The notes under the pieces: generated by a model
What the model was told of the DNA's origin: nothing
What the model saw: only the letters and a program-made list of their open reading frames with translations
The model's database searches: none
Shown: positions 3,774-59,578 of the stretch, piece after piece
Position numbering within the stretch: the first letter of the stretch is position 1
Layout: each line of letters opens with the position of its first letter
Program-made: the position numbers and the translations under genes
Source: Propionibacteriaceae bacterium
Lineage (GTDB): Bacteria; Actinomycetota; Actinomycetes; Propionibacteriales; Propionibacteriaceae
NCBI GenBank assembly: GCA_031272505.1
Contig: JAISTQ010000005.1
Span: forward strand, 31,572-95,571
Length of the DNA stretch: 64,000 nt
Reading direction: 5' to 3'

Positions 3774-4632
3774 CGCCGCCGGTTTCCTGGTCATCGACAA
3801 GCCCCCCGGCCTGACGTCACAGCAGGTGGTCAGCCGGGTGAAGCGGGCTTTGGGCGCGAAAAAGGCAGGCCATGCGGGCACCCTCGATCCGATGGCGACC
3901 GGCGTGTTGGTCGTCGGGGTGGGGCGGGCCACCCGGCTGCTCGGCTATCTCTCCGGCCACGACAAGCGCTACGAAGCCACGATCCGGCTCGGGCAAGCCA
4001 CCACCACCGATGACGCCGAGGGTGAGCCGCTCGGCGAGCCCGCCGACACCAGCCAACTCACCGCCGCCCAGATCGACGCCGCCCTGGCCAGCTTCGTGGG
4101 CGAGATTGAGCAGGTGCCCGCGTCCGTCTCCGCGATCAAAGTGGACGGCAAACGCGCCTACGCCCGGGTGCGCGCCGGCGAGGACGTCAGCCTGCCCCCG
4201 CGGAAAGTGCGGGTTTTTTCCCTGGAGCGGATTCCCACCCCCAGCCTGGCCGAGATCCAGATCCAGGTGCACTGCTCGTCCGGCACCTACATCCGGGCCA
4301 TCGCCCGCGACTTGGGCCAACTCTTGGGCGTGGGCGGCCATCTGACGGCGTTGCGCCGCACCTCGGTGAGCGCCTTCGATCTCTCCCAGGCCGTCAGCTT
4401 GGACGAGGTGGACGACACCGCCGAGCTGATCAGCCTGAGCGCGGTGGCCCGCGAGGTGTTCGACTCCCTCGAAGTCGGCCCGGCGGAGGCCGCTGACGTC
4501 GGCTTTGGCCGGGCGATCAGCAACCCCGGCGACACCGCCGAACTGGTCGCGATCTTCGCTGACGGCGAATTCCTCGCCCTCTACGCGCCCGAAGGTTTGA
4601 AGCTCAAACCGGTGGCGGTGTTTCTAGGTTAA
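3766..4632 (+). CDS. truB: tRNA pseudouridine(55) synthase TruB
   Basis: 'GFLVIDKPPGLTSQQVVSRVKRALGAKKAGHAGTLDPMATGVLVVGVG'. ATG overlaps the rbfA stop (ATGA). Confidence 0.9.
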   Translation: MSDAAGFLVIDKPPGLTSQQVVSRVKRALGAKKAGHAGTLDPMATGVLVVGVGRATRLLGYLSGHDKRYEATIRLGQATTTDDAEGEPLGEPADTSQLTAAQIDAALASFVGEIEQVPASVSAIKVDGKRAYARVRAGEDVSLPPRKVRVFSLERIPTPSLAEIQIQVHCSSGTYIRAIARDLGQLLGVGGHLTALRRTSVSAFDLSQAVSLDEVDDTAELISLSAVAREVFDSLEVGPAEAADVGFGRAISNPGDTAELVAIFADGEFLALYAPEGLKLKPVAVFLG

Positions 4633-4637
4633 GGTGG

Positions 4638-5543
4638 ATGACCGTGAGTTCTGGGCAGTCGGCCGTCGCGATCGGCAATTTTGACGGCGTGCACATCGGG
4701 CATCGCGCGGTGCTCGCCGAAGCGCGGGCGCTGCAGCCCGAGAGCGAACTCGTCGTGGTCACCTTCTGGCCGCACCCGCTGCAGTTGCTCACGCCCGCCG
4801 ATCCGCCGAAACTGCTGGGCACCTTGGACGAGCGCCTCGCGCTGCTGAAAGCCGCGGGCGCGGATCGCGTCGAAGTCGTCGAATTCACCCCCGCCCTCGC
4901 CAAAGAGAGCCCAGAGCAGTTCATCGCCGAAGTCTTGCTGCCGCTGCGCCCAGTCCGGGTGGTGGTGGGGGAGAACTTCCGCTTTGGCGCCCAAGCCGTC
5001 GGCGACGTCAACACTTTGCGCGTTTTCGGGCAGGCCGCCGGGTTCGCCACCACCGCGCTGCCGCTGGTGAGCAGCAAAGGCGAGGAAACCACGTCCAGCC
5101 GGATCCGCCAACTCCTGGAGGCCGGGGAGGTGTCCGCGGCGGCGGAGCTGCTGGGACGGCCGTTCCGCTTCTCCGGCGAGGTGGTGCACGGGGAGCATCG
5201 CGGCAAGTCGCTGGGCTTTCCGACGGCCAACCTGCTGGTGCCCGAGGAATTGGCCTCGCCCGCCGACGGTGTGTACGCCGGGCTGGCCCAAATCGGGCAA
5301 AAGGGCTTGCCAGCGGCGATTTCGGTGGGCTCCAACCCCACTTTCGAGGCGGTCTCGCGGCGCATCGAGGCGCATGTGATCGGCCGGGACGATCTGGAGC
5401 TGTACGGGCAGGTCATCAGCGTGGATTTCACCGCCAGATTGCGCGACATGGTGCGCTTCGCGTCCAAAGAAGAGTTGATCAACCAGCTACGAAACGATGC
5501 GGTTGCCGCCCGCGCCGCCTTGGCGCAGAGTAGCCTGTTGTAA
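4638..5543 (+). CDS. ribF: Bifunctional riboflavin kinase / FMN adenylyltransferase
   Basis: 'AIGNFDGVHIGHRAVL' nucleotidyltransferase motif and a C-terminal riboflavin kinase domain ('PTANL...', 'YAGLA'). Conserved truB-ribF order. Confidence 0.9.
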   Translation: MTVSSGQSAVAIGNFDGVHIGHRAVLAEARALQPESELVVVTFWPHPLQLLTPADPPKLLGTLDERLALLKAAGADRVEVVEFTPALAKESPEQFIAEVLLPLRPVRVVVGENFRFGAQAVGDVNTLRVFGQAAGFATTALPLVSSKGEETTSSRIRQLLEAGEVSAAAELLGRPFRFSGEVVHGEHRGKSLGFPTANLLVPEELASPADGVYAGLAQIGQKGLPAAISVGSNPTFEAVSRRIEAHVIGRDDLELYGQVISVDFTARLRDMVRFASKEELINQLRNDAVAARAALAQSSLL

Positions 5544-6356
5544 GTGCGGGCTAAAGAGCTTGGTGTCAGCGACGGGCAGTTGGTGTTGGATTTCTGCCGT
5601 CGTCGGCCGCTGGTGAGTGTGTTCATGGCCTCTCGGGTGGAGGCGGGAATGCTGCGCCCCGGCGCCCCCGGCAAGATCTACGGATACCCGGCCAAGCATT
5701 CGAACGCCTTCCTGCACGTGGGCACCAACCTCACCCCGTTGGCCGAGAACGAAGAGTGCGTCGACGCCTTCGTGGAGGTGGCGAAGAACCGGGTGAGCCA
5801 ATCCATCGTGGGCGAATCCTGGATCACCTTGGCGTATTGGCGGGCGCTCTGTGACGCCTATGGCCGCGAGTACGCCTACGTGCGCGAAGTCCGCCCCAGC
5901 CAGCCGCTGTTGGCGCTTTCGGGCGACCCGCAGGTGCCGCCGTCTCCGGCCGTCAAAGCGCTGGATTTCAGTTGCTACCCCGAGTATCTGGACACCTCGA
6001 TAAGGATGTACACCGAGGAGGTCGGCCAGCAGCCGCCGGACACCTATCCGAGCTATTGCCGCTGGACGTTGAACACCGGCCGGGCCTACGGGGTGGTCAA
6101 GGACAAGCAGGTGCTCTTCAAGACTGACGTGGGGGCGGCCGCGCAGGGAGTCGCCCAAATCCAGGGCGTGTGGCTGAATCCGCGCTATCGGGGCAATGGC
6201 CTGGCCGCCGGGCTGATCTCGGCGGTGGTCACCGAAGTGCGCAAGACGCACCCCACCGTCACCCTCTATGTGAACTCGTTCAACACCCGGGCGCTGCGGG
6301 CCTACAAGGCGGTCGGCTTCTCTCAAGTCGGCGAGTTCGCCACCATCTTGTACTAG
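5544..6356 (+). CDS. GNAT-family N-acetyltransferase, DUF4081-like
   Basis: C-terminal GNAT motif 'VWLNPRYRGNGLAAGLISAVV...TLYVNSFNTRALRAYKAVGF'. Starts 1 nt after the ribF stop, GTG 5544 or ATG 5625. Confidence 0.6.
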   Translation: MRAKELGVSDGQLVLDFCRRRPLVSVFMASRVEAGMLRPGAPGKIYGYPAKHSNAFLHVGTNLTPLAENEECVDAFVEVAKNRVSQSIVGESWITLAYWRALCDAYGREYAYVREVRPSQPLLALSGDPQVPPSPAVKALDFSCYPEYLDTSIRMYTEEVGQQPPDTYPSYCRWTLNTGRAYGVVKDKQVLFKTDVGAAAQGVAQIQGVWLNPRYRGNGLAAGLISAVVTEVRKTHPTVTLYVNSFNTRALRAYKAVGFSQVGEFATILY

Positions 6357-26848: not shown

Positions 26849-27293
26849 CGCCCCCGCAGGCGAATCCTCCTGCCACCTCAGCCCGTTCAGATTTGAGTTC
26901 TTGCACTTTTCGGCGGCGGATCACGACAACAACTCATCACGGTAGAACGGGGACGGAACCACGGGCACAGAGTGCTGTGGGAGGTGGGACGAAAGGCGGG
27001 CGGGCGGTGGCTGCCCGCGAAGGCGAGAGGCAAGGCAACCACGGGTGAACGCCCGCGGACTCTTCGTTCAACGCGGGCCGTTGGGTGTGCATGACGAGAC
27101 ACTTGGCCCGCAAGGTGGGGATGGGGGGAGGAGGGAAACTACTCAATCGTTTTCCAAGAAAGGCCGATTCTGCAATCTATTGAGTAGTTTTGGGTTCCCA
27201 CAGGGGGTGCGGGAGGTATGGGTGTGTCGGCGCGGATCGGGCGGCTATGGCGGGTGGAATGGCAATGGTGAGGGGGGTAGGTGGGGCTAAGCT

Positions 27294-40216: not shown

Positions 40217-41227
40217 TCACATCCAGCGGCCGGCGATGGGGTGGGCGCAGTGGGGGCAGTGGCCGGAGGTGAGGGTGTTTTGGGTGACGTGGAAGCCGTC
40301 GCGGATGATGAGGGGGGCGTGGCAGGCGGGGCAGTAGGTGGTGGCGCCCTCAAGGTCGCGGATGTTGCCGGTGTAGACGAAGTGCAGGCCGTTGGCCTGG
40401 GCGAGGTGGCGGGCGCGGGCCAGGGTGGCGGCGGGGGTGCGGGGAGTGTCGCGCATCCGGTTGTCGGGGTGGAAGGCGGTGAAGTGCAGCGGGACGTGCG
40501 GGCCGAGCGCGTCGGCCACCCAGGCGCTGAGCGCGTCGATTTCGGCGTCGGAGTCGTTTTGGCCGGGGATCAGCAGGGTGGTGATCTCCAGCCAGACGTT
40601 GGTCTCGCGGGCCAGGTAAACCAAAGTCTCTTTGACGGGGGCGAGCCGCGCTCCCGTCAAGCGGCGGTAGAAATCGTCCGAGAAGCTCTTCAAATCGACG
40701 TTGGCGCCGTCCATCGCCGCGAAGAACTCGGCGCGGGGCTCGGCTTCGATATATCCGGCGGTGACCGCGATGTTCACCAGCCCGGCCTCCCGGCAGGCGC
40801 TGGCCGAGTCGATGGCGTATTCGGCGAAGATGATCGGATCGTTGTAGGTGTAGGCCACGCCCCGGCAGCCCCGGCCGGAAGCGAGCGCGGCGATCTGCTC
40901 GGGGGTGGCGGCGGCCGCCATCAAATCCAAGCTGCGGGCGGTGGAAAGCTCCCAGTTCTGGCAGAACTTGCAGGCCAGGTTGCAGCCGGCCGTCCCGAAG
41001 CTGAGCACGGTGGAGCCGGGAAAAAAGTGGTTCAGCGGCTTCTTCTCCACCGGGTCGACGGCAAATCCCGAAGAGCGCCCGTAGGTGGTGAGCATCAGTT
41101 GCCCGCCCAGGTTTTGGCGGACGAAGCAGAAGCCCCGCTGGCCTTCGCGCAGCGAGCAGTGCCGCGGGCAGAGCGTGCAGCGGACTTTCCCGTCAACCTC
41201 GCTCCACCAGCGCGCCGGGCTATTCAT
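40217..41227 (-). CDS. AmmeMemoRadiSam system radical SAM enzyme
   Basis: 'GCNLACKFCQN' CxxxCxxC; PFL-activase-like; C-terminal Cys/His cluster 'CPACH...CPHCAH'. Adjacent to AMMECR1 and MEMO1-like genes. Confidence 0.85.
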   Translation of the reverse strand: MNSPARWWSEVDGKVRCTLCPRHCSLREGQRGFCFVRQNLGGQLMLTTYGRSSGFAVDPVEKKPLNHFFPGSTVLSFGTAGCNLACKFCQNWELSTARSLDLMAAAATPEQIAALASGRGCRGVAYTYNDPIIFAEYAIDSASACREAGLVNIAVTAGYIEAEPRAEFFAAMDGANVDLKSFSDDFYRRLTGARLAPVKETLVYLARETNVWLEITTLLIPGQNDSDAEIDALSAWVADALGPHVPLHFTAFHPDNRMRDTPRTPAATLARARHLAQANGLHFVYTGNIRDLEGATTYCPACHAPLIIRDGFHVTQNTLTSGHCPHCAHPIAGRWM

Positions 41228-41774
41228 GGAAGGCGCTCACCTGGTAGACGTGGAGCCGCACGTCATCCCCCCAGTAGTCGGCAGCCAGCCGGGCTTTGCG
41301 CTTCAGATGCGCCATGAACACCCGCTTATCTGGCAGATCCTCCCAAACCTGCGGCAGGAAGGTGGCGCGATGGCTGCCCGCCTCCAGGATCACCCCGTCG
41401 ATGTCCGGGCGGAGCTGGGCCAGCGCGTCCGCCTCGGAGGTGAAACTCAGCTCCTGCGGGGGCGTCAGCACCGAGACTTCCACGTCCACCTGCGCGAACT
41501 CGTCGCGCGAAAGCGGCGGGAAGCGCGGATCGCGGAAGGCGGCGGAGACGGCGTTGGAGCGCACGTCCTCACCGAGCCAGCGCCAGGCCTCCAGGGAGCC
41601 GATGCAGCCGCGCAGCCGCCCGTCGATGGTGAGGGTGACGAAGGCAGCCCCCCGTTCGTTGAGCCACTCGGCCTCACCGTCTGGCTCGGCAGCGGGCAGA
41701 TTCAGTTGGGTGGCGATGGCCGACCGGGCCAGCCGCGTCAATACCAATCCGGCGTCATCAGGCAAGGCAGTCAT
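41220..41774 (-). CDS. AmmeMemoRadiSam system protein A (AMMECR1 domain)
   Basis: 'AFVTLTIDGRLRGCIGSLEA' AMMECR1 motif. 8-nt overlap with the radical SAM gene. Confidence 0.85.
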   Translation of the reverse strand: MTALPDDAGLVLTRLARSAIATQLNLPAAEPDGEAEWLNERGAAFVTLTIDGRLRGCIGSLEAWRWLGEDVRSNAVSAAFRDPRFPPLSRDEFAQVDVEVSVLTPPQELSFTSEADALAQLRPDIDGVILEAGSHRATFLPQVWEDLPDKRVFMAHLKRKARLAADYWGDDVRLHVYQVSAFHE

Positions 41775-41782
41775 GGGTACTC

Positions 41783-42550
41783 CTATTCGTAAAAGGCGAA
41801 GCTGGCATAGCCGACCACGCGGCGTTTGTCGCCAGCGGTGTCCCCCGAATTGCAGGCGGCGAGCAGCTTAGGCTGCCAACCGTGGTCGCGGGCGGCGAGC
41901 AGGAAGCCATTCAGCGGGTAGTACCCGCAGGCGTCCTCATGGCCGACCGATTCCAGGGCCAAAATCCGCTCGATGGTCTGCGCGTCCTGGGCCTGTGCCT
42001 CGGGATACGTTAAATAATGCGAGAGATCGGAGGAGACGACGAAGCGCAACTCCGGCTCGGTGAAAAGCACGTCCAACACCTCGGCGACGTCGGCGGGCGA
42101 GACCCAGCCGACCGCCAGCGGCAGCACCTCGGTGACGCCCAGGCGCTGCAGGAACGGCAGGTGCACTTCGATGGAATGCTCCTCGGCGTGGACGCGGGCG
42201 TCTTGCACCACCTGCTCGAAATCGCTGACGAGCTCCACCCCCCGCTCCCAGACGGATACTTCGCCGAGCGGGGTGGCCAGCGCGTCCGCGTCCGGCAACG
42301 CCAACGCCGGGATGCCGACCCGATGGCACGGGCCGAGCACCACCACCGGCCCCAGGTCAGCCCCTTTCCAGCAGGCATAGGCCTGCCCGGCGGTCGAGCC
42401 GGAATAGACGTAGCCGGCGTGCGGGGCGACCAGCGCGCGCGGGGTGGGGGAGGTGGCGGCGGGGACGTCCAGAAAGCCGTCCACGGTCTTTTCCAAAGTG
42501 TGGGCGTCGCCAGGGTAGAACAGCCCGGCGACGGCGGCGGGCCGGATCAT
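41783..42550 (-). CDS. AmmeMemoRadiSam system protein B (MEMO1 family)
   Basis: 'AGLFYPGD', 'APHAGYVYSGSTAG' and 'SSDLSHY' MEMO1 motifs. Confidence 0.85.
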   Translation of the reverse strand: MIRPAAVAGLFYPGDAHTLEKTVDGFLDVPAATSPTPRALVAPHAGYVYSGSTAGQAYACWKGADLGPVVVLGPCHRVGIPALALPDADALATPLGEVSVWERGVELVSDFEQVVQDARVHAEEHSIEVHLPFLQRLGVTEVLPLAVGWVSPADVAEVLDVLFTEPELRFVVSSDLSHYLTYPEAQAQDAQTIERILALESVGHEDACGYYPLNGFLLAARDHGWQPKLLAACNSGDTAGDKRRVVGYASFAFYE

Positions 42551-43545
42551 GTGGCCTCCTCGTTTATTAGGGCAAGCAGTTCGGTTTTGCGCTCCGCGGT
42601 GGCGAAGGAGGCGGTGACGGAGTTGCGGCAGAGCTGCAACAGTTGGGCGTCGTCAAGGCCGAACTCGGCGGTGACGGCGGCGAAGTTCGCCCCCAGGTAG
42701 CCGCCGAAGTAGGCCGGATCGTCAGAGTTGACGCTCACCAGCACTCCGGCATCCAGCAAAGCGGGCAGCGGGTGGGCGGCCAAGGTGTCGACGGCCTGCA
42801 GCCGCACGTTGGAGAGCGGGCAGAGCGTCAACGGGATTTGCCGCGCGGCCAAGGCGGCGAGCAAGGTGCCGTCTTCGACGGAGCGGATGCCATGGTCGAT
42901 GCGTTCGGCGTGCAGCAGGTCCAATGCCTGCCAGACGTAATCGGGCTCGCCCTCCTCGCCGGCGTGGGCCACCACATGCAGCCCCAGCTCGCGCGCCCGT
43001 GCGAAGACTGCAATGAACTCTGACGGCGGGTGGCCCACCTCGGCCGAATCCAACCCGACGCCGAGCAACTGCCCCAGATATGGCTCGGCGGCCGCGAGCA
43101 GCTCGGCGGCCGCGTCCGCGCCCAAATCGCGCAGGAAGCACATGATCAGCCCGCCGGTGATGCCCAACTCCAGCGCCGCTCGGGAGGCTGCCTCCGTCAA
43201 TCCGGCGATCACCTCCGCCAGCGGCACCCCGTTGCGGACATGCACCTGCGGATCGAAGAAGAGTTCCGCGTGCGCCACCCCGTCGGCGGCCGCCCGCTGG
43301 TAGTACGCCCAGGCGAGCTGCGCGAAATCCTCCTGGGTGCGCAGTACCGTCATGCACTGGTAGTACAGATCCAGGAATGACTGCAGGGAGGTGAACTGGT
43401 AGCGTCCGCGCAATTCGGCAACGCTGTCCCACGGCAAAGGCACCGCGTTTCGCCGCGCCAACTCGAATACCATCTCGGGCTCCAGCGTCCCCTCCACATG
43501 CAGATGCAATTCCGCTTTTGGCACCCGGACTAGCTCCATGCGCAA
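42547..43545 (-). CDS. add: Adenosine/adenine deaminase
   Basis: 'PKAELHLHVEGTL', 'VVAHAGEEG' and 'SVNSDDPAYFG' metal-binding motifs. ATGA overlap with the MEMO1 gene. Confidence 0.88.
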   Translation of the reverse strand: MRMELVRVPKAELHLHVEGTLEPEMVFELARRNAVPLPWDSVAELRGRYQFTSLQSFLDLYYQCMTVLRTQEDFAQLAWAYYQRAAADGVAHAELFFDPQVHVRNGVPLAEVIAGLTEAASRAALELGITGGLIMCFLRDLGADAAAELLAAAEPYLGQLLGVGLDSAEVGHPPSEFIAVFARARELGLHVVAHAGEEGEPDYVWQALDLLHAERIDHGIRSVEDGTLLAALAARQIPLTLCPLSNVRLQAVDTLAAHPLPALLDAGVLVSVNSDDPAYFGGYLGANFAAVTAEFGLDDAQLLQLCRNSVTASFATAERKTELLALINEEAT

Positions 43546-43564: not shown

Positions 43565-46243
43565 TTGCCGGTGATCCGATGCCGCAGGGGTACTTTAGTT
43601 TTCTGCGCGGATTTGCGTCAATCACTCGCCTCGCTGGCCCGGTTGGCATACGATTCGAATGTGTACGAGAGTGTGCGGAACATTATCGATTCGATTCTGG
43701 AGTATCTGCGTGGCGAGGTGAGCGTACACCTGGTCGGGATGCGGGGCTCCGGCCGCACCTTGGTCACCTCGCTGGTCACCGAGCGGCTCACCGAAGAAGG
43801 TGTCACCGTCGCGTCGGTCACCGGCATTCCGGCTTTGAAAGATCGGCCGCTGGGCGCGCTGTTGGCCTCCGGTTTGCTGAATCCGCCCGTCGGGGCCGGG
43901 GGAACGGCGGCCGCACCGCCAGCGCCAGCCGGCGGCACCTCCATCGCGAGTGCGGTCACCTCGCTGTTGCGGCACCTGCCCCAGCCGAATTCGGTCTTGA
44001 TCGTGGACGACGCCGACGAGTTGGACCAATCCAGCGCGGGTGTGATCGACGCCGCCCGCACCCGACAGCGCTTCCTGGTGCTGGCCGTCCGCCGTCCGGG
44101 CGGAGCCAGCCGCGAGGCCACCTCAGCTTTGACGTCGCTGGTGAATCCCTGCGCCCGACTCACCTTGCATCCGATGCACTTTGACCAACTGCACTCGCTC
44201 GTGCATGATCTGCTGCCCGGCACCGTGGAATCCGCCACCGTGGCCCGCATCGCCACCGCCACCGGGGGCCTGCCCGGTTTGGTGCAGGCGGTGATCGGCA
44301 CCGGCAAGCGCACCGGGGCGATCGCCCAGGTGCAAGGCCAGTGGAAGGCCGTGGGCGATCTCTATTCGGAACGGCTGGCGGTGCCCATCTCGCTGCACCT
44401 CTATGGGTTGAACGATGCCGAGATGGACGCCTTGCTGCGGCTGGCCTGGATGGGTTCGGTGCCCGCCTCCGACGTCCACCTGATCGCCGACCTGCCCACC
44501 TTGGCGCGGCTGGACGACATCGGCGTGGTGCAGATCATGGATTCCTCCGCGGGCCGCATCGGCTCGGTCTTCCCGCCGCTGTTGGCCGAATACCTGCGTC
44601 GCGAGTCTTCCAGCACCCGCCGCACCCTGATCTTGCGCGAACTCGAGGAGGCCGGCGCTGACCCGCAATCGGAGATCAGCCGCTGGGTAAGCCCGCGTCG
44701 CGGCCTGACGGTTTCCGATTCGTCACTGCTCTCCAGCCGGATTCGCGAATACTGGGAGGCGGAGACGCAGCTCAACCGGACGGAATGGCTCAAAGACCAA
44801 TCTCCGCAGAACGCGGTGCCGCTGGTGACCTCGATGATCTCCGCTTCCGCCAGCGCCGAGGAGATCGAGCATGTGATCCAGCGCACCGACAAGCGCAAGT
44901 CGAGTGATTTCTGGAAGGCGCGGCTGGCGATGTGGACCGCCATCTATCGGGCGGTCGCCCGCGAAGATCTGCAGGGCGCCCAGGAGTTGCTGGCCCAGCG
45001 AAAGAAAGACAATCCCGCCTTCGCCGACGTGTTGAGCTTCATTTCCGAGCATCTGCAGTTCGTCTGCGACCGGGTGCCCGACGTCGAATGGGACAAGGTG
45101 CCGAAACTGGTGGACGAGCTGCACCAGGACGTCCGCGTGGGGCTGCTGGTGGAGTGCCTCATCGCCCAAGGCCGTCCCGCCGACGCGTTGAAGCTGTTGG
45201 AACAGTACAGTCCGGAGTTCCTCTCCTACGCCGACCACAATCCGATCTATCGCGGCTTGGCGATGCTGCTGAACGGCCAGGTGCTGGAAGGCACCCGGTG
45301 GGCCGAGCAGCAGTTGGCCATCGCCCAGGACGAGTTGCATCCGGGGCTGATCCAGGCGAACGGCTATGTGGTGGCTTTCGGATTGGCGCTGCAAGGGCGC
45401 TTCCACGAGCTGGGCACCATCGCCGCCTCGATTTTGACGCTCACGGGCGTCACCACCCTGTACGAAATCTTCCAGCGCGGCGTGATGACGCTGGCCGCCT
45501 TGGCGGCGGTCTGGGATGGCCGGGTGGCCTACGCGACCACGCTGGCCGATCAAGCGGCGCACGTGCAGAAGCTGGGGCCGTTCCCGGCGATGTTGACGGA
45601 AGTGGCGCCCGAGTTGATCTACGTCGAGGGCGAGGAAGCCGGCGAGACGCTGTGGCGGGCCACCGATGATCTGCTGGAACGCGGCTATATCTCGGCGGCG
45701 ATCTTCTGCGGGTCGGCGGCGATCGTGAAGAAACGGGACCTCAAGCGGGCCGCCAAGCTGGCCAAGGTGGCGGGCAAGACCCAAAGCCAACTGCTGCGCT
45801 CGATGGGCAACTTCATCTTGGCCGCCGCCGAGATGGATTCGGCCGCGCTCCGCCGCTCCGTCAAGGAGATGGAGGGCACCGGCGTGGCGCTGCACGTACT
45901 GCGGGGCTCGGTGATGCTGGCCATGGCACTGCGGCAAGACGGCGACATTGAGGGCTCCGCCGAGGTCGCCGACGAGGCTTTCCGGACATCGGCCATCAAC
46001 GTGTCGGTGAAGCAGCGGATGTTCCTGCCCTTGGCGGAAGCGTGCGGCCTGTCCATCCGGGAGTTGGAGATCGGCAAGATGTTGGCGTCGGGGAAGAACC
46101 CCACCGAGGTCGCCCAAGAGCTTGATCTGAGCGTCCGTACCGTAGAAAACCACGTTTCGAGCACATATCGGAAGGTCGGTGTGGGCTCAAGGAAGCGATT
46201 AAGTGCCGCAATTACCACCTGGTTGGGGGGTTTAGAGGTCTGA
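43565..46243 (+). CDS. LAL-type LuxR-family transcriptional regulator (N-terminal AAA/NTPase, C-terminal LuxR HTH)
   Basis: Walker A 'GMRGSGRTLV'; C-terminal 'LSIRELEIGKMLASGKNPTEVAQELDLSVRTVENHVSSTYRKVGV'. Start uncertain (TTG 43565, GTG 43571 or 43661). Confidence 0.8.
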   Translation: MPVIRCRRGTLVFCADLRQSLASLARLAYDSNVYESVRNIIDSILEYLRGEVSVHLVGMRGSGRTLVTSLVTERLTEEGVTVASVTGIPALKDRPLGALLASGLLNPPVGAGGTAAAPPAPAGGTSIASAVTSLLRHLPQPNSVLIVDDADELDQSSAGVIDAARTRQRFLVLAVRRPGGASREATSALTSLVNPCARLTLHPMHFDQLHSLVHDLLPGTVESATVARIATATGGLPGLVQAVIGTGKRTGAIAQVQGQWKAVGDLYSERLAVPISLHLYGLNDAEMDALLRLAWMGSVPASDVHLIADLPTLARLDDIGVVQIMDSSAGRIGSVFPPLLAEYLRRESSSTRRTLILRELEEAGADPQSEISRWVSPRRGLTVSDSSLLSSRIREYWEAETQLNRTEWLKDQSPQNAVPLVTSMISASASAEEIEHVIQRTDKRKSSDFWKARLAMWTAIYRAVAREDLQGAQELLAQRKKDNPAFADVLSFISEHLQFVCDRVPDVEWDKVPKLVDELHQDVRVGLLVECLIAQGRPADALKLLEQYSPEFLSYADHNPIYRGLAMLLNGQVLEGTRWAEQQLAIAQDELHPGLIQANGYVVAFGLALQGRFHELGTIAASILTLTGVTTLYEIFQRGVMTLAALAAVWDGRVAYATTLADQAAHVQKLGPFPAMLTEVAPELIYVEGEEAGETLWRATDDLLERGYISAAIFCGSAAIVKKRDLKRAAKLAKVAGKTQSQLLRSMGNFILAAAEMDSAALRRSVKEMEGTGVALHVLRGSVMLAMALRQDGDIEGSAEVADEAFRTSAINVSVKQRMFLPLAEACGLSIRELEIGKMLASGKNPTEVAQELDLSVRTVENHVSSTYRKVGVGSRKRLSAAITTWLGGLEV

Positions 46244-46265
46244 ATTACGCACGGTTTGCGGAATT

Positions 46266-46299
46266 TTGTACCTAATTCGCCCAAATTTGTACCTAATTT
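46266..46299 (+). promoter_or_regulatory. Direct repeat TTTGTACCTAATT x2 (21-bp register)
   Basis: Copies at 46266-46278 and 46287-46299, 23 nt after the LuxR-family gene stop. AT-rich in a high-GC genome. Confidence 0.4.
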
Positions 46300-46373
46300 G
46301 GGGGGGTAGTACGCACAACGACCCTAACCATCACGTACGGTTGAAACATACCTCGGGAAAGGAAGGGCATCAC

Positions 46374-46454
46374 ATGAAGCACCAGCTCATGCAGCAGCGT
46401 AGCGTCGATGCCCTATGCTTGGCGGCTCAGTTCCCACCTCTCACATTTAGATGA
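46374..46454 (+). CDS. Candidate small ORF (26 aa, MKHQLMQQRSVDALCLAAQFPPLTFR) with strong RBS
   Basis: GGAAAGGAAGGG 7 nt upstream of the ATG. Followed by two perfect inverted repeats: 46466-46476/46500-46510 and 46524-46535/46547-46558. Confidence 0.3.
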   Translation: MKHQLMQQRSVDALCLAAQFPPLTFR

Positions 46455-46691
46455 GCCGCTAGAGAGAGTGTCTGCCAACCTCACCTCTCAACACCCCCCC
46501 GGCAGACACTCAACCCCATCGTGGGCCGACCGGTGTTCCCGCTTTACCGGTCGGCCCACCCAGGTTTAACGGGCCGGAATCAGCCCCCCAGCCCAACTCA
46601 TAATCCATCCACAGCTTCGGCACATTTTTGCAACATAGGTTTGCGGCGTCTGGGGTTCGTCCAGACGTAGTCGTCAACTGAGAGGCCGACC

Positions 46692-47738
46692 ATGGGGAAG
46701 AACGTTTTCAAGATCGTCCTGGATCTGATCCTGCTTGTCACCGCCACCTTGCTGTACCACTCCCAAGTTTTGGGGCTGGCGTTCCATGAGATCGCCGGGC
46801 TGTGCATCGCCGGGGTGATCGTGATCCATCTCGCCTTCGGCTGGAAGAGCCTGGTGGGTACCACGAAGCGGCTGTTCGCCAAAGGAACGCCGTGGCGGAT
46901 GCGGGTGCGCTGGATCGTGGGCGCCTGCCTGCTGGTGAGCTTCGCGCTGATCGTGGTCTCCGGCCTGTTCATTTCCGAGATCGTGCTGCCCAGCTCCGGC
47001 GGCGGCCGGGGCGGCTCGTGGCGGGTCATCCACGACTTCTGCGCTGGCTTGACGATCATCTTCGCCGGCGTCCACATCGGCCTGCACTGGGATTTCGTGC
47101 GGGGTGTGGGAAGCAAGGTGTTGAAGATTCCGGCCAACATCGCCCGTCCGCTCTCCTATGGGCTGCTCGCCATCGTGTTGGCCTTCGGCGCCTTCTCGCT
47201 GGTGACCAGCAACCTCGCCAGCTTGCTGATGACCCCGTTCAACGGCACCGGCGGCGGGATGCGGATCGTTACCTCCGGTGGCCAGCCCGGCAATTTCCCC
47301 TCCGATTTCCCCACCGACGGCACCTTCCCCACCGACGGCGCCTTCCCCACGGACGGCACCATGCCGCAGCGCGGCGGTGGCCGGGGCAGCCTGCCCGAAG
47401 GCGAAGGCCCGAGCTTCAACCAAGAGGGCGAGGGGCCGACCTTCAACCAAGAGAGTGATTCCCAAGCCGGCGGGATGCAGGTGTACCCGTCAGACTTCCC
47501 CACCGACTTCCAGTCCGGCGAGGGCGGCCAGATCCGGATCGCGGGCGGCGGCGGCGGCGGCCGGTTCCGTTCCGGCGGCTCGGGCACCGGCTTCGTCGGC
47601 GCCTTGGGCGATTTCGCCACCTACACCTCGATGATGGCGTTGTTTGCCGCAGTTAGCTACCTGATCGCGCGGCGCGGCAAGGACGAAATCGTGGCCCCCG
47701 CACCGGTCCCCGAAGAGACCATCGATCCCACCGAGTGA
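46692..47738 (+). CDS. Membrane protein with DUF4405-like His-containing 4-TM N-terminal module and Gly/FPTDG-repeat C-terminal region
   Basis: N-terminus 'KIVLDLILLVTATLLYHSQVLGLAFHEIAGLCIAGVIVIHLAFGW' with several conserved His. Repeats 'FPSDFPTDGTFPTDGAFPTDG', 'EGEGPSFNQEGEGPTFNQE' and 'GGGGGG'. A C-terminal hydrophobic segment. Confidence 0.6.
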   Translation: MGKNVFKIVLDLILLVTATLLYHSQVLGLAFHEIAGLCIAGVIVIHLAFGWKSLVGTTKRLFAKGTPWRMRVRWIVGACLLVSFALIVVSGLFISEIVLPSSGGGRGGSWRVIHDFCAGLTIIFAGVHIGLHWDFVRGVGSKVLKIPANIARPLSYGLLAIVLAFGAFSLVTSNLASLLMTPFNGTGGGMRIVTSGGQPGNFPSDFPTDGTFPTDGAFPTDGTMPQRGGGRGSLPEGEGPSFNQEGEGPTFNQESDSQAGGMQVYPSDFPTDFQSGEGGQIRIAGGGGGGRFRSGGSGTGFVGALGDFATYTSMMALFAAVSYLIARRGKDEIVAPAPVPEETIDPTE

Positions 47739-47757: not shown

Positions 47758-47831
47758 CGGGGCATAGCGCAGCTTGGTAGCGCATCCGCTTTGGGAGCGG
47801 AAGGTCGCAGGTTCAAATCCTGTTGCCCCGA
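47758..47831 (+). tRNA. tRNA-Pro (anticodon UGG)
   Basis: Manual cloverleaf fold: 7-bp acceptor CGGGGCA/TGCCCCG, D-arm GCGC/GCGC, anticodon stem TCCGC/GCGGA with loop TTTGGGA (anticodon TGG), T-arm GCAGG-TTCAAAT-CCTGT. CCA not encoded. Confidence 0.85.
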
Positions 47832-47888
47832 CGAAGCCGAGCATTGGTGGTAGATTGGAGCCGTCCGTTCCCTGTAAGTGAGGCTCAC

Positions 47889-48290
47889 ATGAAAAACCTA
47901 GTCAGAATCCCTACCCTCGTCCTGCTCGCGCTGTTGGTGGTGAGCGGTTGCGCCTCGGGCTCGCCGATCGAGCAATTCGTGGCCGCCGGCCAATCGCAGG
48001 TCGATTCCGTCAAAGAGTCGTTTGGTGACACGTTCAGCTCGGTCGAGTTGTCGGCGGAAGGCGAGAACACCATCGTCTACACCTATGTCTTCGGCACTGA
48101 GCAAGACATCCCGACGATCTCGGCCGGCTTCGAGTCGACGACCAGCACCCTGCAGTCCGGCTGTGACGAGGCGGTCTTCCCGGCGATGCGGCAAGCTGGC
48201 ATCAGCGATCCGGCCGCCAAATACGTATATCTGAACCCAGACGGCACCGAAGTCTGGTCCACCTACATCTATCCCTCCGCGGAGGAGTAG
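47889..48290 (+). CDS. Lipoprotein (DUF4854-like)
   Basis: 'MKNLVRIPTLVLLALLVVSGCASG' lipobox; 133 aa; no catalytic motifs. Confidence 0.6.
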   Translation: MKNLVRIPTLVLLALLVVSGCASGSPIEQFVAAGQSQVDSVKESFGDTFSSVELSAEGENTIVYTYVFGTEQDIPTISAGFESTTSTLQSGCDEAVFPAMRQAGISDPAAKYVYLNPDGTEVWSTYIYPSAEE

Positions 48291-49702: not shown

Positions 49703-50797
49703 ATGGCGGTATTGGAGTACAAGTGCCCAAACTGCGGCGGTGCGATCAGTTTTGACGCCACCGCGCAGCAGATGAAGTGCCCGTATTGCGAATCCACGTT
49801 TGACGTCCAGGCGCTGATCCAGCACGACAAGCTGCTCAGCCAGCCGCAGCCGGACGAATCCGTCAACTTCGGCTACGAAGAGCAGCAGTATGCGGACGGC
49901 GAGCTGGCCGGCATGGTCGTCTACTCGTGCACCTCCTGCGGCGGCGAGATCGTGGGCTCGGAGGTGATGGGCGCCACTTCCTGCCCGTTCTGCGGGAACC
50001 CAGTCGTCGTCACCTCGAAATTCTCCGGAGATCTGCGCCCCGATGCCGTCATCCCCTTCAAGCTCACCAAAGAACAGGCCTTGGCGGCGTTGAAGCAGCA
50101 CTATCTGGGCAAAAAGCTGCTGCCGAAGGTCTTCAAGGACCAGAACCACCTCGACGAGATCAAGGGTATCTACGTTCCCTACTGGCTTTTCGACGCGGAC
50201 GCGGTGGCCGATCTGGCCTATCACGCCACCACCGTGTCCACCTGGTCGGATTCGGACAACATCTACACCCGCACGTCACACTACTCGGTGCTGCGCGCCG
50301 GCGCGCTGGGCTTCAACCTGGTGCCGATGGACGGCTCCTCGCGGATGGACGACGCGATGATGGAATCCATCGAGCCCTTCGATTTCTCCCAGGCCGTCGA
50401 TTTCCAGACGGCCTACCTCGCCGGCTTTTTCGCGGATCGCTATGACGTCACCGCCGAGCAGGCGCAGACCCACGTCGCCGACCGGGTGGTGAACTCCACC
50501 GCGAGCGCTTTCCGGCGCACCGTGAGCGGCTACGCCTCCGTCACCACTGAGCGGCAGAGCATCCAACTGCAAAACGGGAAGGTCCGCTACGCGCTGCTGC
50601 CGGTGTGGGTGCTCTCCACCTCCTGGGAGGGCAACGCCTACACCTTCGCCATGAATGGGCAGACGGGCAAGTTCGTCGGCGATCTGCCCATGGACAAGGG
50701 GGCCTTCTGGCGCTGGTTCCTGGCCATCTTCGGCGGCGGCTTGGTGGGGTTCGGCGCGCTGGCCACCTTGCTGCTTTGGGGTGGGGGTGCGTTCTGA
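49703..50797 (+). CDS. Zinc-ribbon membrane protein (YdjG-like)
   Basis: Three CxxC pairs at the N-terminus ('CPNCGG...CPYCES', 'CTSCGG...CPFCGN') and a C-terminal TM helix. GAGGAGG RBS 5 nt upstream of the ATG. Confidence 0.7.
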   Translation: MAVLEYKCPNCGGAISFDATAQQMKCPYCESTFDVQALIQHDKLLSQPQPDESVNFGYEEQQYADGELAGMVVYSCTSCGGEIVGSEVMGATSCPFCGNPVVVTSKFSGDLRPDAVIPFKLTKEQALAALKQHYLGKKLLPKVFKDQNHLDEIKGIYVPYWLFDADAVADLAYHATTVSTWSDSDNIYTRTSHYSVLRAGALGFNLVPMDGSSRMDDAMMESIEPFDFSQAVDFQTAYLAGFFADRYDVTAEQAQTHVADRVVNSTASAFRRTVSGYASVTTERQSIQLQNGKVRYALLPVWVLSTSWEGNAYTFAMNGQTGKFVGDLPMDKGAFWRWFLAIFGGGLVGFGALATLLLWGGGAF

Positions 50798-51829: not shown

Positions 51830-52228
51830 GTGAAGACAGCAAGGCTTACCGCGCTGATTTTTGCAGCGCTTGATGTGGTGTTGGCGGTGGCGATCATCGT
51901 GCTGGTCGCCACGGGCGGGTCCAGCCCCACGAAGTACATCGCCGAGATCGAGGTGCAGGAGCAGGCGGGCTCGGTCGTCAAGACGGCGAACTACCTGCCC
52001 ATCCTGGATGAGAGCGTCGATTGGGCGGAGCTGCCCCAGGAGCAGCGGATCGAGATCGCCCGCGCGGCCTGCAAAGAGGCGCTGGCGCAGATCGCCGCCG
52101 ACGAGACGGTCGTCTACAACATCCTGGGTTTGACGTCCACCAAGAGTCCCGCCTTCCTCTATGCTCCCGAGCCGGAGAAGGTACAGATCATTGTGGACAA
52201 CGAGATGGTAGGGGAGGCTGAGCTATGA
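51830..52228 (+). CDS. Small membrane-anchored hypothetical protein
   Basis: GTG start after an AAGGAG RBS. One N-terminal TM helix. Overlaps the next gene by 4 nt. Confidence 0.5.
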
Positions 52229-52731
52229 GCAAAGCAGACAAAGCCAAATCCAAGGCCACCCCTCCTGAAGACAACGGCAGCGAGCTTTCGCCGGCCGATC
52301 TGCTCAATTTTGAGTTTGACGAGCCGGATGAGGTTGATCCAGCCGAGCTGATCGATTTCGAGGCTCCCGCCGAACCGGAGCCGGAAGTCGTCGAACCCGA
52401 ACCGGAACCCGAGCCGGAGCCGGAACCCGAGCCGGAACCCGAGCCCGAGCCCGAGCCGGAACCCGAGCCGGAGCCAGAACCCGAACCGGAGCCCGAGCCC
52501 GAGCCCGAGCCCGAGCCGGAAGTGGTCCTGGAGGAGCCGGAACCCAAGCCGGAAGCCGCGGCGGAGCCCGTCGCTCTAGCTGAACCCGCCGATGCGGCCG
52601 CTGCGGCGGAACCCGAGGGGGAGGAAGCTGCCGCGCCCGCCAAACCCAAGCCTTGGCCGCTCTACGCGCTGATCCTGGGCACCATCGCGGTAGTGGAAGC
52701 CATCGTCGTCATTGTCCTCGCCAGCGGGTAG
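52225..52731 (+). CDS. Acidic (Glu-Pro)22 dipeptide-repeat protein with C-terminal TM anchor
   Basis: 168 aa with 22 consecutive EP repeats (52393-52527) and C-terminal '[25 protein letters not shown]'. Confidence 0.6.
52393..52527 (+). repeat. (GAR-CCN)22 hexanucleotide coding repeat encoding (Glu-Pro)22
   Basis: gaaccc/gagccg units, directly visible in the sequence. Confidence 0.9.
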
Positions 52732-53224: not shown

Positions 53225-53230
53225 CTATAA
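53225..53230 (+). promoter_or_regulatory. Consensus -10 hexamer TATAAT, 7 nt upstream of the leader-peptide GTG
   Basis: Exact TATAAT. Spacing is consistent with a leaderless transcript beginning at the GTG. Confidence 0.35.
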
Positions 53231-53237
53231 TAGCCCT

Positions 53238-53279
53238 CGTGTTTGCGCGACTGCTGCTTGGTTGCCGCAGCGAGGCCTA
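53238..53279 (+). CDS. Candidate leuA leader peptide MFARLLLGCRSEA (Leu-Leu-Leu)
   Basis: 13-codon ORF with three consecutive Leu codons (CTG CTG CTT). Its 3' end overlaps the 5' arm of a hairpin. Confidence 0.4.
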
Positions 53280-53299
53280 ATCCCCAGGCTTCCTCGCTG
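53266..53299 (+). promoter_or_regulatory. Attenuator-like hairpin GCAGCGAGG-(16 nt)-CCTCGCTGC upstream of leuA
   Basis: Perfect 9-bp inverted repeat; weak U-tract (GAGTTTG) after it. Confidence 0.4.
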
Positions 53300-53338
53300 C
53301 GGAGTTTGCCCGCGCCTGACACCCCAACTCACAGATAG

Positions 53339-56509
<3,171 letters not shown>

Positions 56510-56533: not shown

Positions 56534-57628
56534 CTAGTGAAGCTCGCCTTTGCGGAATCGGGAGTCCAGGTAGAGCAGCACGGTGAGCGATTCGCTGAAG
56601 GGCGTGATGAACACCGAGACGGCATAGAGCAGGATCGCGAAGACGATCAAGCTCCCGATAGCGAATGCCACGCCAAAGCCGATGCCGCCGATCACTTCGG
56701 CGGGGATGCCGACGATCAGGCTGCCCAGCAGCGAGATGCCGACGATGCGCCAGAATGAGCCTTTCACCAGCGCGCGGGAGCGCTTGAAGGCGGCGATCGG
56801 GGAGCAGTCCTCCAAGATCACCACGGTGGGCACGAAGAACAGCCGGAACAACACGAAGAACAGGATGATGGCGGCGATGAAGTGCAGCAGCGCTCCGATG
56901 CCCATCATGGGGGCGTTCCTTTGGATACCGCCGACCATGAACAAGATGGTGGGGATGGCGAGGGTGGCATAGACGATCAGCACCAGCAGGATCTCCGCCC
57001 CGATCAGCGGCAGCAGCCGCCCGATTTTCGCTTTGAAGGCCTCGGATAGCGTCACCTTGTTGCCGTAGGCGGCCTGGGCGGCGCCGTAGGGGAGAGTCAC
57101 CGAGAGCGGCAGCAGCACCAGCGTCGCCAAGAGCAACAGCACCGACATCTGGATCATCCGTCCGGGTGACAAGTATGCGCTGAGGTATTCCATGAGCACT
57201 TCCGGATCAGGGCCTAGCTCGATGTTCGTCCGCACATAGGAGATCAAGATGCCGAAGATCCCAAAGACGCCGGAGAACCACATCAGCACCATGGAGATGC
57301 CCCCGAAGATGGCTGGGGCTCCGAGCATCAGGCCGGGGTTGAATCTAATGGTCTTGAAAGCGCCGCTGAGGATGTCACCCAAGGACATCGGTCGCAGCGG
57401 CACCGTCCCCACGGGCGCCGGCTCCGGCGGAATCGAGTAGCCCTGCGGGGATTGCGGTTGCGCTTGGTATTGCGGCTGGGCCGGGTATTGGGGCTGGGCC
57501 GGATATTGCGGCTGGGCCGGGTATTGGGGCTGGGCCGGGTATTGGCCTGGCGGTGGCGTCTGGTAGGCCGGAGGTTGCGGCTCCGGGGGACGTGGTTGTT
57601 GTGGATCAGGGGGTGGGTACTCCGTCAT
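56534..57628 (-). CDS. Membrane protein with N-terminal Pro/Gln-rich (QPQYPA)5 repeat region and polytopic C-terminal domain
   Basis: 'YPAQPQ' x5 encoded by 18-nt repeats at about 57466-57557, followed by about 6 TM segments. No assignable family. Confidence 0.6.
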   Translation of the reverse strand: MTEYPPPDPQQPRPPEPQPPAYQTPPPGQYPAQPQYPAQPQYPAQPQYPAQPQYQAQPQSPQGYSIPPEPAPVGTVPLRPMSLGDILSGAFKTIRFNPGLMLGAPAIFGGISMVLMWFSGVFGIFGILISYVRTNIELGPDPEVLMEYLSAYLSPGRMIQMSVLLLLATLVLLPLSVTLPYGAAQAAYGNKVTLSEAFKAKIGRLLPLIGAEILLVLIVYATLAIPTILFMVGGIQRNAPMMGIGALLHFIAAIILFFVLFRLFFVPTVVILEDCSPIAAFKRSRALVKGSFWRIVGISLLGSLIVGIPAEVIGGIGFGVAFAIGSLIVFAILLYAVSVFITPFSESLTVLLYLDSRFRKGELH

Positions 57629-59413: not shown

Positions 59414-59475
59414 GCTGACGTTGCGGTATTGAGAATTGAGTGCGTGGCCACCAGTAGCGGCTAAGTATTGACGAT

Positions 59476-59523
59476 AATTCGCCAAGTTACTTGGTGATAT
59501 ATCGGCAAGTTACTTGGCGAATT
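59476..59523. promoter_or_regulatory. 48-bp near-perfect palindrome AATTCGCCAAGTTACTTGGTGATA|TATCGGCAAGTTACTTGGCGAATT
   Basis: 21 of 24 arm positions are complementary. AT-rich island upstream of the DUF4143 ATPase gene. Each arm contains the sub-palindrome CCAAGTTACTTGG. Confidence 0.6.
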
Positions 59524-59578
59524 GTCAAGGGTTACGGTAGGCTCAGTTCGTGGATAGGCTTAGAGAGAGGGTATGTAG

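Follow-up and report, generated by a model that had tools for sequence, protein, structure and literature searches.

In a 64-kb stretch of DNA from an uncultured Propionibacteriaceae genome (hereafter the window), a 448-bp spacer (46244-46691) separates the stop codon of a gene for a LAL-like regulator from the ATG of a gene for a DUF4405 membrane protein. We read this spacer, tentatively and with somewhat less than even confidence, as a composite control and 3'-end region that acts as plus-strand RNA. At its core is a GC-rich hairpin, hp2, which is conserved downstream of the two nearest regulator orthologs; before it lie two hairpins (hpA and hp1) with a motif repeated in their C-rich loops, a 26-codon open reading frame (ORF), here termed the micro-ORF, and a pair of operator-like direct repeats. 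An earlier note on this DNA had suggested that the spacer might be a regulator target with a leader peptide or a small RNA (sRNA), or a peptide-signal locus, and all the sequence features that it described are present. The spacer is indeed non-random and regulatory-looking, and one of its hairpins is conserved, but a conserved peptide and a signal locus are not supported. Because the micro-ORF does not look like a real gene, the spacer is probably an ordinary transcript-end/control region rather than a peptide-signal locus.

The regulators nearest to that of the window are 46% identical (locus L001, the same as L005, from Propionibacteriaceae Md513_bin89) and 39% identical (locus L002, the same as L006 and L023, from Actinomycetes Emb289P4bin49). 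No relative with a regulator closer than 46% identity was found in a scan of genomes (17 loci) or in one of metagenomes (9 loci), and the only other contig that carries the locus is 100% identical. Many of the related loci belong to termite-gut metagenome-assembled genomes. Because the nearest orthologs are this distant, only strongly constrained elements of the spacer can show as conserved. Gene order around the regulator is not kept: DUF4405 comes next downstream in the window, whereas L001 has DUF1508 and L002 has PFK at this place, and the genes on the upstream side differ too.

The hairpin hp2 (46521-46559, plus strand) is formed by arms at 46521-34 and 46546-59 that pair at 14/14 positions, in a perfect GC-rich stem of 14-15 bp closed by the loop GUUCCCGCU(UU), with a folding energy of -33.3 kcal/mol and a z-score of -6.5. 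The inverted repeat that had been reported at 46524-46558 is this hairpin, and its stem, GGGCCGACCGG/CCGGTCGGCCC, recurs downstream of both distant relatives despite the different genes that follow. In L001, a 14-bp hairpin of the hp2 type lies 183-226 nt past the regulator stop (-32.7 kcal/mol, z -4.3). In L002, the 15-mer CCGGTCGGCCCACCC, found 35 nt past the stop, is the 3' arm of a 13-bp hairpin that starts 4 nt after the stop, the whole spanning 4-50 nt after it. The longest word common to the spacers of the window and L002 has 15 nt, a length reached in 1/3000 dinucleotide shuffles, and the longest one shared with L001 has 12 nt (reached in 76/3000); both map to the same 40-nt element, hp2. 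As a control, the spacers upstream of the same three regulator genes share no word of >6 nt.

The changes in the base pairs of hp2 were read directly from the folds of the three sequences (window, L001 and L002). In the 5' arm of L002, C-to-U and A-to-G changes lead to U-G and G-U pairs; a single bulge is present, and at the closing position A-U replaces U-A. The L002 hairpin is predicted on the plus strand only, and because its substitutions keep pairing solely in plus-strand RNA, the comparison points to selection on the plus-strand RNA structure of the regulator transcription unit. We propose that hp2 would be an ancestral, terminator-type 3'-end hairpin of the regulator gene that has travelled with the gene in evolution, and that it most likely ends or stabilises plus-strand transcripts. 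These would start at the regulator promoter, and possibly also at another promoter located among the AT-rich repeats.

Several observations weigh against this proposal. The L002 hairpin is no more stable than shuffles (z -0.1), and the element occurs in three genomes only, the more distant orthologs being without it. The sequence of the stem is conserved, and not its structure alone; structure would suffice for a plain terminator, and hp2 may therefore be the target of a more specific factor. No hairpin of the spacer is followed by a U-tract (hp1 is followed by CAACCCC and hp2 by CCAGGUUUAAC), and the loops, of 9-24 nt, depart from the canonical intrinsic terminator, which has a GC-rich stem, a 3-8-nt loop and a U-tract; the loops of hpA and hp1 (22-24 nt) are far beyond terminator loop size. 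A consensus promoter/terminator scan returned no promoter, and 0 terminators in 46000-46900. hp2 is like an intrinsic terminator in that its 14-15 bp GC-rich stem lies on the sense strand past the stop codon, by only 4 nt in L002, and U-tract-less 'I-shaped' terminator hairpins have reportedly been proposed for mycobacteria.

The possibility that hp2 is a repetitive extragenic palindrome (REP) or derives from a miniature inverted-repeat transposable element (MITE) was considered and rejected. REP/MITE sequences are dispersed intergenic palindromic repeats present in multiple copies per genome, and hp2 is similar to them as a GC-rich palindrome in a 3' intergenic position, the sequence of which is common to related genomes. 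However, the stem is present once in the 64 kb and once in each fetched locus, always with the same gene, and no match to it was found in the plasmid and phage collections. Because it is single-copy, with near-matches at chance level in the window (6 observed, 6.4 expected) and at background density in the fetched loci, hp2 does not behave as a dispersed repeat. Two other candidates were also dropped. Pairing of the 5' region of the regulator with hp2 via GGCCGACCGG was discarded, this sequence being found in the 5' coding part of several orthologs and absent from the window gene; furthermore, it does not correspond to the Walker A codons, and the 5' untranslated regions (UTRs) carry no complementarity to hp2. 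A small protein encoded on the minus strand across hp2 was discarded as well, the shared GPTG/PVGP residues following from the palindrome and tblastn giving nothing further.

Other features of the L001 spacer were recorded. This 525-nt region, which follows the 46%-identical ortholog, is strongly structured (5262-5690; z -4.9), with long-range perfect helices of 12 bp (5441-52/5552-63) and 9 bp (5465-73/5538-46). It carries a 14-nt C-rich direct repeat, CCCACATTTCCCGC/CCCAGTTTTCCCGC, at a 28-nt spacing, and shares the 10-mer CCTCTCACAT with the hpA loop of the window.

The hairpin hpA (46419-46462, plus strand), which the earlier note had overlooked, has an 11-bp stem and the 22-nt C-rich loop GUUCCCACCUCUCACAUUUAGA (-17.2 kcal/mol by RNAfold). 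Its arms (46419-29/46452-62) form 8 GC-rich Watson-Crick pairs, one U-A and two G-U pairs, and its pairing probability was 0.89-0.96 across all transcript models tested. The next hairpin, hp1 (46466-46511, plus strand), corresponds to the inverted repeat that the note had placed at 46466-46510; its arms (46466-76/46501-11) pair perfectly (11/11 bp, -19.9 kcal/mol) around the 24-nt C-rich loop AACCUCACCUCUCAACACCCCCCC. From a repeat search and partition-function folding, hpA, hp1 and hp2 are predicted to form independently and with unpaired loops in each transcript model examined, with probabilities of ~0.9-1.0 and no competing helix. The RNA of the whole spacer, read on the plus strand, folds more stably than its shuffles (z -3.4), in agreement with the claim that the region is structured.

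The loops of hpA and hp1 share a motif. The sequence CACCUCUCA begins at loop nucleotide 6 in both hairpins (46435-43 in hpA and 46482-90 in hp1), and it is predicted to be 78-100% unpaired, depending on the loop and the transcript model (78-95% in hpA). At the DNA level, the 9-mer CACCTCTCA has just two copies in the 64 kb, 47 nt apart, and the stems that present it are unrelated in sequence; apart from this 9-mer, the alignment of the two units is no better than random. GUUCCC, in turn, is common to the loops of hpA, hp2 and the L001 hairpin. Within both hpA and hp1 loops, CCUCUCA is the exact complement of UGAGAGG, the Shine-Dalgarno (SD) sequence of the DUF4405 gene. TGAGAGG occurs 5 times in the window, as 3 SDs (those of DUF4405, of a zinc-ribbon gene at 49703 and of a DUF7544 gene at 57628 on the minus strand) and as the 2 antisense copies in the loops. 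The duplexes of the hpA and hp1 loops with the DUF4405 start have energies of -15.6 and -15.2 kcal/mol, vs -9.5 and -10.2 with shuffled loops of matched composition, and 1.6% of the shuffles reach these values.

A rival explanation of the module is an sRNA. An independent trans-acting sRNA, or a fragment of the regulator 3' UTR, would be ~150-260 nt long and end at hp2; the hpA and hp1 loops (CACCUCUCA) and the hp2 loop (GUUCCC) would serve as seeds on G-rich ribosome-binding sites (RBSs), as in 6C of Actinobacteria or in RsaE of Firmicutes, the candidate targets being DUF4405 and the other two genes that have a UGAGAGG. This explanation is in keeping with the three stable hairpins, whose C-rich loops are predicted to be unpaired, and also with the duplication of the loop motif at the same position on unrelated stems, the recurrence of GUUCCC, a conservation of hp2 sequence that exceeds what a terminator requires, the finding that every TGAGAGG copy in the window is an SD or a loop antisense, and the advantage of the loop/DUF4405 duplexes over shuffles. 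There is also a precedent: in actinobacterial sRNAs, loops rich in C bind G-rich RBSs without a chaperone, and such loops have also been proposed as alternative terminators (PMC6486639).

The spacer was searched for known RNA families. A cmscan of 45900-47000 against Rfam, with E up to 10 and permissive filters, gave just chance-level 14-18-bit matches to eukaryotic long non-coding RNAs and microRNAs, and no covariance model of the Rfam 15 riboswitches, T-box or other cis-regulatory RNAs matched the spacer. In the whole window, at the gathering threshold, tRNA alone was listed, and the L001 spacer gave chance matches only. Nearest in design are the 6C sRNA (Rfam RF01066; B11 in Mycobacterium) and other actinobacterial sRNAs with C-rich loops. 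Like 6C, the spacer belongs to a high-GC Gram-positive genome and has a series of stable hairpins, the C-rich loops of which are exposed as single strands; as to the C runs of the loops, that of hp1 ends in C7, and those of hpA and hp2 have CCC only. Unlike 6C, it gives no RF01066 match in 45900-47000 at E up to 10, it has loops of 22-24 nt that carry CACCUCUCA, it comprises three hairpins and is conserved in three genomes only, and it is tied to a regulator gene, whereas 6C is a pan-actinobacterial locus.

The sRNA explanation further meets the absence of a promoter match in the consensus scan and the lack of conservation of hpA and hp1, neither of which is found in L001 or L002. Complementarity to the SD is lacking in hp2 and in the L001 and L002 hairpins when these are compared with the neighbouring start regions, and in this G-rich genome many partners in the window pair with the loops better than the DUF4405 start region does, so that target specificity is unproven. 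Since no Rfam family was matched, the conserved hairpins are without complementarity and many partners are stronger, we give little weight to anti-SD pairing of the loops; as a conserved property it was rejected, being neither shared by the hp2, L001 and L002 hairpins nor specific within the window. Taken together, an sRNA appears somewhat unlikely. Within the composite control and 3'-end region that we favour, a regulatory role of the hpA and hp1 loops is possible. In this lineage ~275 nt separate the regulator stop from hp2 and hold hpA and hp1, which are of one design, and the three hairpins form a ~145-nt C-rich, G-poor module with loops that are predicted to stay single-stranded. Such a module could insulate the regulator from the DUF4405/tRNA-Pro unit downstream, and its anti-SD-like loops may damp DUF4405 translation by pairing with UGAGAGG.

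A further hairpin, hp3 (46643-46671, -15.2 kcal/mol), lies close to the DUF4405 gene. Its core is the CGTCTGG/CCAGACG pair (46647-53/46661-67) that had been noticed near the RBS of this gene. Together with a -10-like CATAAT at 46599-604, hp3 delimits a possible promoter/5'-UTR zone of the DUF4405 gene (46599-46671, plus strand), a reading based on sequence and fold. Because the consensus scan found no promoter, one in this zone is only something that we infer, and possible. The -10 candidates picked by eye (CATAAT at 46599-604, TAGGTT at 46636-41 and TACGGT at 46336-41) were set aside, the scan having lent them no support.

The micro-ORF (46374-46454, plus strand) codes for 26 amino acids, MKHQLMQQRSVDALCLAAQFPPLTFR, and is preceded by the SD-like sequence GGAAAGGAAGGG (46356-67; 46356-46454 for the two together), which ends 6 nt before its ATG. 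The coordinates and length given in the earlier note were exact. The RBS, described there as near-ideal, is less telling: with -13.1 kcal/mol the SD-like match ranks 23/3834 among the ATG/GTG sites of the window (top 0.6%), most of the sites that outrank it lie within genes, and it is surpassed by the match (-13.7) of a mirror ORF of 23 codons that starts at GTG 46484 on the other strand. The codon-usage log-likelihood of the micro-ORF is -15.5, vs +14.8 ± 7.0 for real 26-codon gene segments, and no more than 0.3% of these have so low a value; the mean for off-frame segments is -31.5, and the micro-ORF is equalled or exceeded by 18% of the spacer windows. Its GC content at third codon positions is 65%, vs 88% in genes. 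Conservation in relatives, which had been named as a check, was looked for: no counterpart is present in the spacers of L001 and L002, and six-frame tblastn together with blastn of the spacer against all loci recovered the hp2 stem alone. An exact look-up of five candidate small ORFs returned none, and the micro-ORF was never called by any source. These results suggest that the micro-ORF is probably not a conserved protein-coding gene; most likely it arose by chance, and at most it would be a translated leader that is not conserved.

The latter possibility was weighed as upstream-ORF control of the DUF4405/tRNA-Pro unit, with a promoter near the repeats and a long leader. Translation of the micro-ORF, perhaps slowed at the rare CCA-CCU codons, would remodel hpA and the RNA downstream of it, or expose a C-rich Rho-loading sequence, the outcome being read-through or the level of DUF4405 translation. 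The rank of the SD-like match speaks for it, as does the position of the stop codon, which falls within the 3' arm of hpA, 12 nt before hp1. The RNA past the ORF is C-rich and G-poor, as in Rho-loading sites, and the downstream unit contains a tRNA-Pro(UGG), the reader of CCA. In addition, the micro-ORF segment 46410-32 can form a duplex of -30.7 kcal/mol with the SD and AUG of DUF4405, vs -25.4 ± 2.5 for shuffles; this long-range pairing is marginal (2.3% of the shuffles reach it) and is lost when the transcript boundaries are changed, and it was not retained. The codon usage is non-genic (log-likelihood -15.5), the ORF is neither conserved nor called, and neither the repeat search nor partition-function folding revealed a mutually exclusive terminator/antiterminator pair. 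The CCA-CCU pair for Pro-Pro is merely CACCUCUCA in frame, the second copy of this motif being non-coding, and the only codon runs of the ORF are QQ and PP.

The same genome does use a leader peptide, and this both favours upstream-ORF control and provides a comparison. Region 53226-53305 (plus strand) reads as a classical leucine leader-peptide attenuator upstream of leuA: a TATAAT (53226-31) is followed by an apparently leaderless 13-codon ORF (GTG, 53239-53280) that codes for (M)FARLLLGCRSEA and contains three consecutive Leu codons (Leu-Leu-Leu), and by an 11-bp perfect hairpin (53265-75/53292-302) with a U-run, AGUUUG, the ATG of leuA being at 53351. It also refutes the claim that nothing comparable to the spacer is found elsewhere in the window. 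The spacer is similar in having a short ORF just 5' of a strong hairpin and a downstream gene, but it lacks a diagnostic (regulatory) codon run, a U-run or U-tract and an alternative pairing, and ~180 nt and two more hairpins intervene before the gene. Control by a translated leader is, on this evidence, quite improbable.

The micro-ORF could instead be the precursor of a secreted or modified signalling peptide, or of a ribosomally synthesised and post-translationally modified peptide, sensed or controlled by the adjacent regulator. The adjacency of a LuxR-type regulator and the SD-like sequence are the only points in its favour. The ORF is without a signal peptide or a recognisable leader/core organisation, its codon usage is non-genic and it is not conserved. 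No transporter or exporter, protease, modification or maturation enzyme, or receptor is encoded nearby, the nearest radical SAM gene being part of a minus-strand triad 5 kb off. A conserved leader or signal peptide, as the earlier note had it, is thus not borne out, and we consider the signal-peptide explanation extremely improbable.

The direct repeats that had been seen after the regulator gene are present within a base or so of where they had been placed: two copies of the 13-bp sequence TTTGTACCTAATT lie at 46265-46277 and 46286-46298, 21 bp from start to start, in a segment (46261-46302) that runs into a G7 run at 46300-06; the earlier coordinates were a few bases off at most. They are the sole matches in the 64 kb at <=2 mismatches (0.10 expected; 0/100 shuffles reach 2), and at 3 mismatches the matches in the window are at chance level. 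Both copies are embedded in small palindromes of their own, GAATT-N8-AATTC (46261-78) for the first and CCCAAATT-N7-AATTTGGG (46280-302) for the second, the centres being 21 bp apart. The two 21-nt repeat units differ at 4 positions, all outside the 13-nt core. Because of the palindromic embedding and the phasing by two helical turns, the repeats resemble a tandem operator for a dimeric DNA-binding protein, of which the adjacent regulator would be one candidate.

MalT boxes and the NarL heptamers TACYYMT are binding sites of LuxR-type/LAL regulators, and the TACCTAA core inside the repeat is, we presume, similar to a NarL-type heptamer. The repeats are like LuxR-type sites in being short boxes in direct orientation, at a helical-turn spacing, beside a gene with a LuxR helix-turn-helix (HTH). 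They differ in being absent upstream of the regulator itself and adjacent to its orthologs. ComA sites are direct repeats too (PMC4797271).

The composition of the spacer is unusual. Nowhere in the window is AT content higher than in its first 100 nt, which have 44% GC and fall in the lowest 0.07% of 100-nt windows, in line with the AT-richer intergenic region that had been described. The hairpin zone has 60-62% GC but a strong C-over-G skew, in the lowest 0.45% of the window. Runs of G or C of >=6 nt are scarce in the window (26 observed vs 90 ± 14 expected), and four distinct ones, overlooked earlier, are clustered within 365 nt of the spacer region (46225-30, 46300-06, 46494-500 and 46584-89). 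On the plus strand, G runs occupy the 5' half and C runs the 3' half, and the G7 (46300-06) and C7 (46494-500) runs are mutually complementary.

Such an aberrant composition, with GC down to 44%, would be expected if the spacer had no dedicated function, being an old terminator (hp2) joined to inserted or duplicated AT-richer DNA, with the repeats and the ORF as by-products; an example would be a decayed miniature mobile element between GGGGGGTTTAGAGGT (46225-39) and ACCTCTCAACACCCC (46483-97). These two sequences form a 13/15 inverted repeat that flanks ~273 bp, the 21-nt units resemble a tandem duplication, and hp2 alone is conserved. However, no second copy of any part was found in the 64 kb, the fetched loci, or the phage or plasmid collections. 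The two perfect 11-bp stems, with the 9-mer in register on unrelated sequence, argue for selection, and the 13-nt core is free of the four differences that separate the repeat units. We regard a patchwork of this kind as improbable, and retain the composite control and 3'-end region, in which termination, insulation, loop-SD pairing and protein binding are the roles that we infer.

The regulator ORF (43565-46243, plus strand) has 892 codons when counted from the first TTG. Gene callers, the Joint Genome Institute (JGI) call and a 19-member family alignment favour a later start, GTG 43661 (860 amino acids) or 43613 (876 amino acids); GTG 43661 is the likely one, from the JGI call and the alignment, and the gene is taken here as 43661-46243. 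LAL (large ATP-binding LuxR-family) regulators, with MalT as the prototype, have ~800-1100 amino acids, a middle region of TPR-like helical repeats and the Walker A motif GxxxxGK[ST]. In the protein of the window, of 860-892 amino acids, a C-terminal LuxR/GerE HTH is recognised by Pfam GerE (44.2 bits vs a cutoff of 23.5; residues 829-878 of the 892-residue ORF). The match of the N-terminal P-loop-like domain to AAA_16 (29.7 bits) is under the cutoff of 32.6, and those of the middle region to TPR_19 (24.3 bits vs 25) and TPR_14 are sub-cutoff too. The NCBIfam models gave weak matches only, to AbsR2 and IniR.

The Walker A motif of the regulator is GMRGSGRT (43736-43759), which departs from GxxxxGK[ST] by an Arg at the canonical Lys position. 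All 19 aligned homologs have this Arg-for-Lys change, as GxRGSGR[ST]; S62, G63 and R64 are invariant or nearly so, and a Walker B-like hhhhDD (D148, D149) is retained. Because GerE is present, Walker A carries Arg and AAA_16 is sub-cutoff, the domain content marks the regulator as LAL-like in architecture, with a non-canonical P-loop. Since Arg replaces the Walker A Lys in all 19 homologs, the N-terminal NTPase domain may be non-canonical or inactive.

In more distant relatives, members of this family have other neighbours. L024 has, from 5529 onward, a second, paralogous regulator in tandem with a family member, the genes downstream of the regulator in L015 and L018 begin with a similar N-terminal sequence, and a gene upstream of the L002 regulator (4173-4985) gives a weak match to Pfam Peptidase_S26 (signal peptidase). 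These neighbours hint at a possible role of the family elsewhere, in the control of gene clusters of the secreted-fibre type.

A further possibility, which we hold to be rather unlikely, is that the spacer carries a previously undescribed structured RNA tied to the clade of LAL-like regulators with an Arg P-loop, in termite-gut Propionibacteriaceae and related Actinomycetes. The core of such an RNA would be the hp2 stem with its GUUCCC-type loop, at which the regulator transcript would end; here the core would have expanded to a three-hairpin riboregulator, with the CACCUCUCA loops as anti-SD seeds on DUF4405 and other UGAGAGG mRNAs, and the regulator and an sRNA derived from its 3' UTR would form a two-layer control unit. 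At most, as we see it, the element combines an operator with either a 3' hairpin of terminator type or an RNA with C-rich loops, all of known kinds. A C-rich-loop riboregulator that is made from the 3' end of the mRNA for a transcription factor, or lies beside it, would be a further instance in which regulation by protein and by RNA are coupled, in a group, the uncultured termite-gut Propionibacteriaceae, the RNA biology of which is essentially undescribed. It would also offer a small system in which target choice by actinobacterial C-rich loops can be tested. If the element were merely a terminator and an operator, its value would lie in annotation: it would mark the 3' boundary of the regulator unit, argue against the 26-codon ORF as a gene, and show that U-tract-less, sequence-conserved 3' hairpins occur in this genome. 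In either case the interest is local and specialist, and two points are worth an experiment, namely that hp2 is conserved in sequence and that the loop motif is duplicated.

The gene that follows the spacer codes for a DUF4405/cytochrome-b561-like membrane protein (46679-47738 with its SD, plus strand; SD UGAGAGG at 46679-85, ATG at 46692; Pfam DUF4405, 44.8 bits), the homologs of which are <=38% identical. A tRNA-Pro gene with anticodon TGG (47758-47832, plus strand; Rfam tRNA 69.2 bits, and ARAGORN), overlooked by the earlier note, starts 20 nt past the DUF4405 stop. It is overlapped by a mechanically called DUF4854 ORF (47823-48290), and therefore the true start of DUF4854 must lie further downstream. 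The identical Logan contig, L031, stops at window position 47834, 2 nt beyond the tRNA. The genes around the regulator are those for adenosine deaminase, Memo, AMMECR1, radical SAM, DUF4405, tRNA-Pro, DUF4854, SPFH, a zinc-ribbon protein and TPM. On the minus strand, 40217-42550 holds an 'AmmeMemoRadiSam' triad (radical SAM 40217-41227, AMMECR1 41220-41774 and Memo-like 41783-42550), adjoined by the adenosine deaminase gene (42547-43545, minus strand), which is divergent from the regulator.

Other features were noted elsewhere in the window. At 59473-59526, upstream of the ORF at 59579, GATAATTCGCCAAGTTACTTGGTGATA/TATCGGCAAGTTACTTGGCGAATTGTC form a near-perfect, AT-richer palindrome of 27 nt that looks like an operator; its halves are 85% complementary and adjoin without a spacer. 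An AT-rich inverted repeat, AAACTACTCAATCGTTT/AATCTATTGAGTAGTTT (27136-27190; 17 nt, 88% complementary, 21-nt spacer), is found in an intergenic zone that also has G-rich runs (27123 and 27272). Finally, the long segment 52188-52731 is of low complexity: plus-strand ORF 52225-52731 translates there to (EP)n, and minus-strand ORF 52188-52649 to (GS)n.

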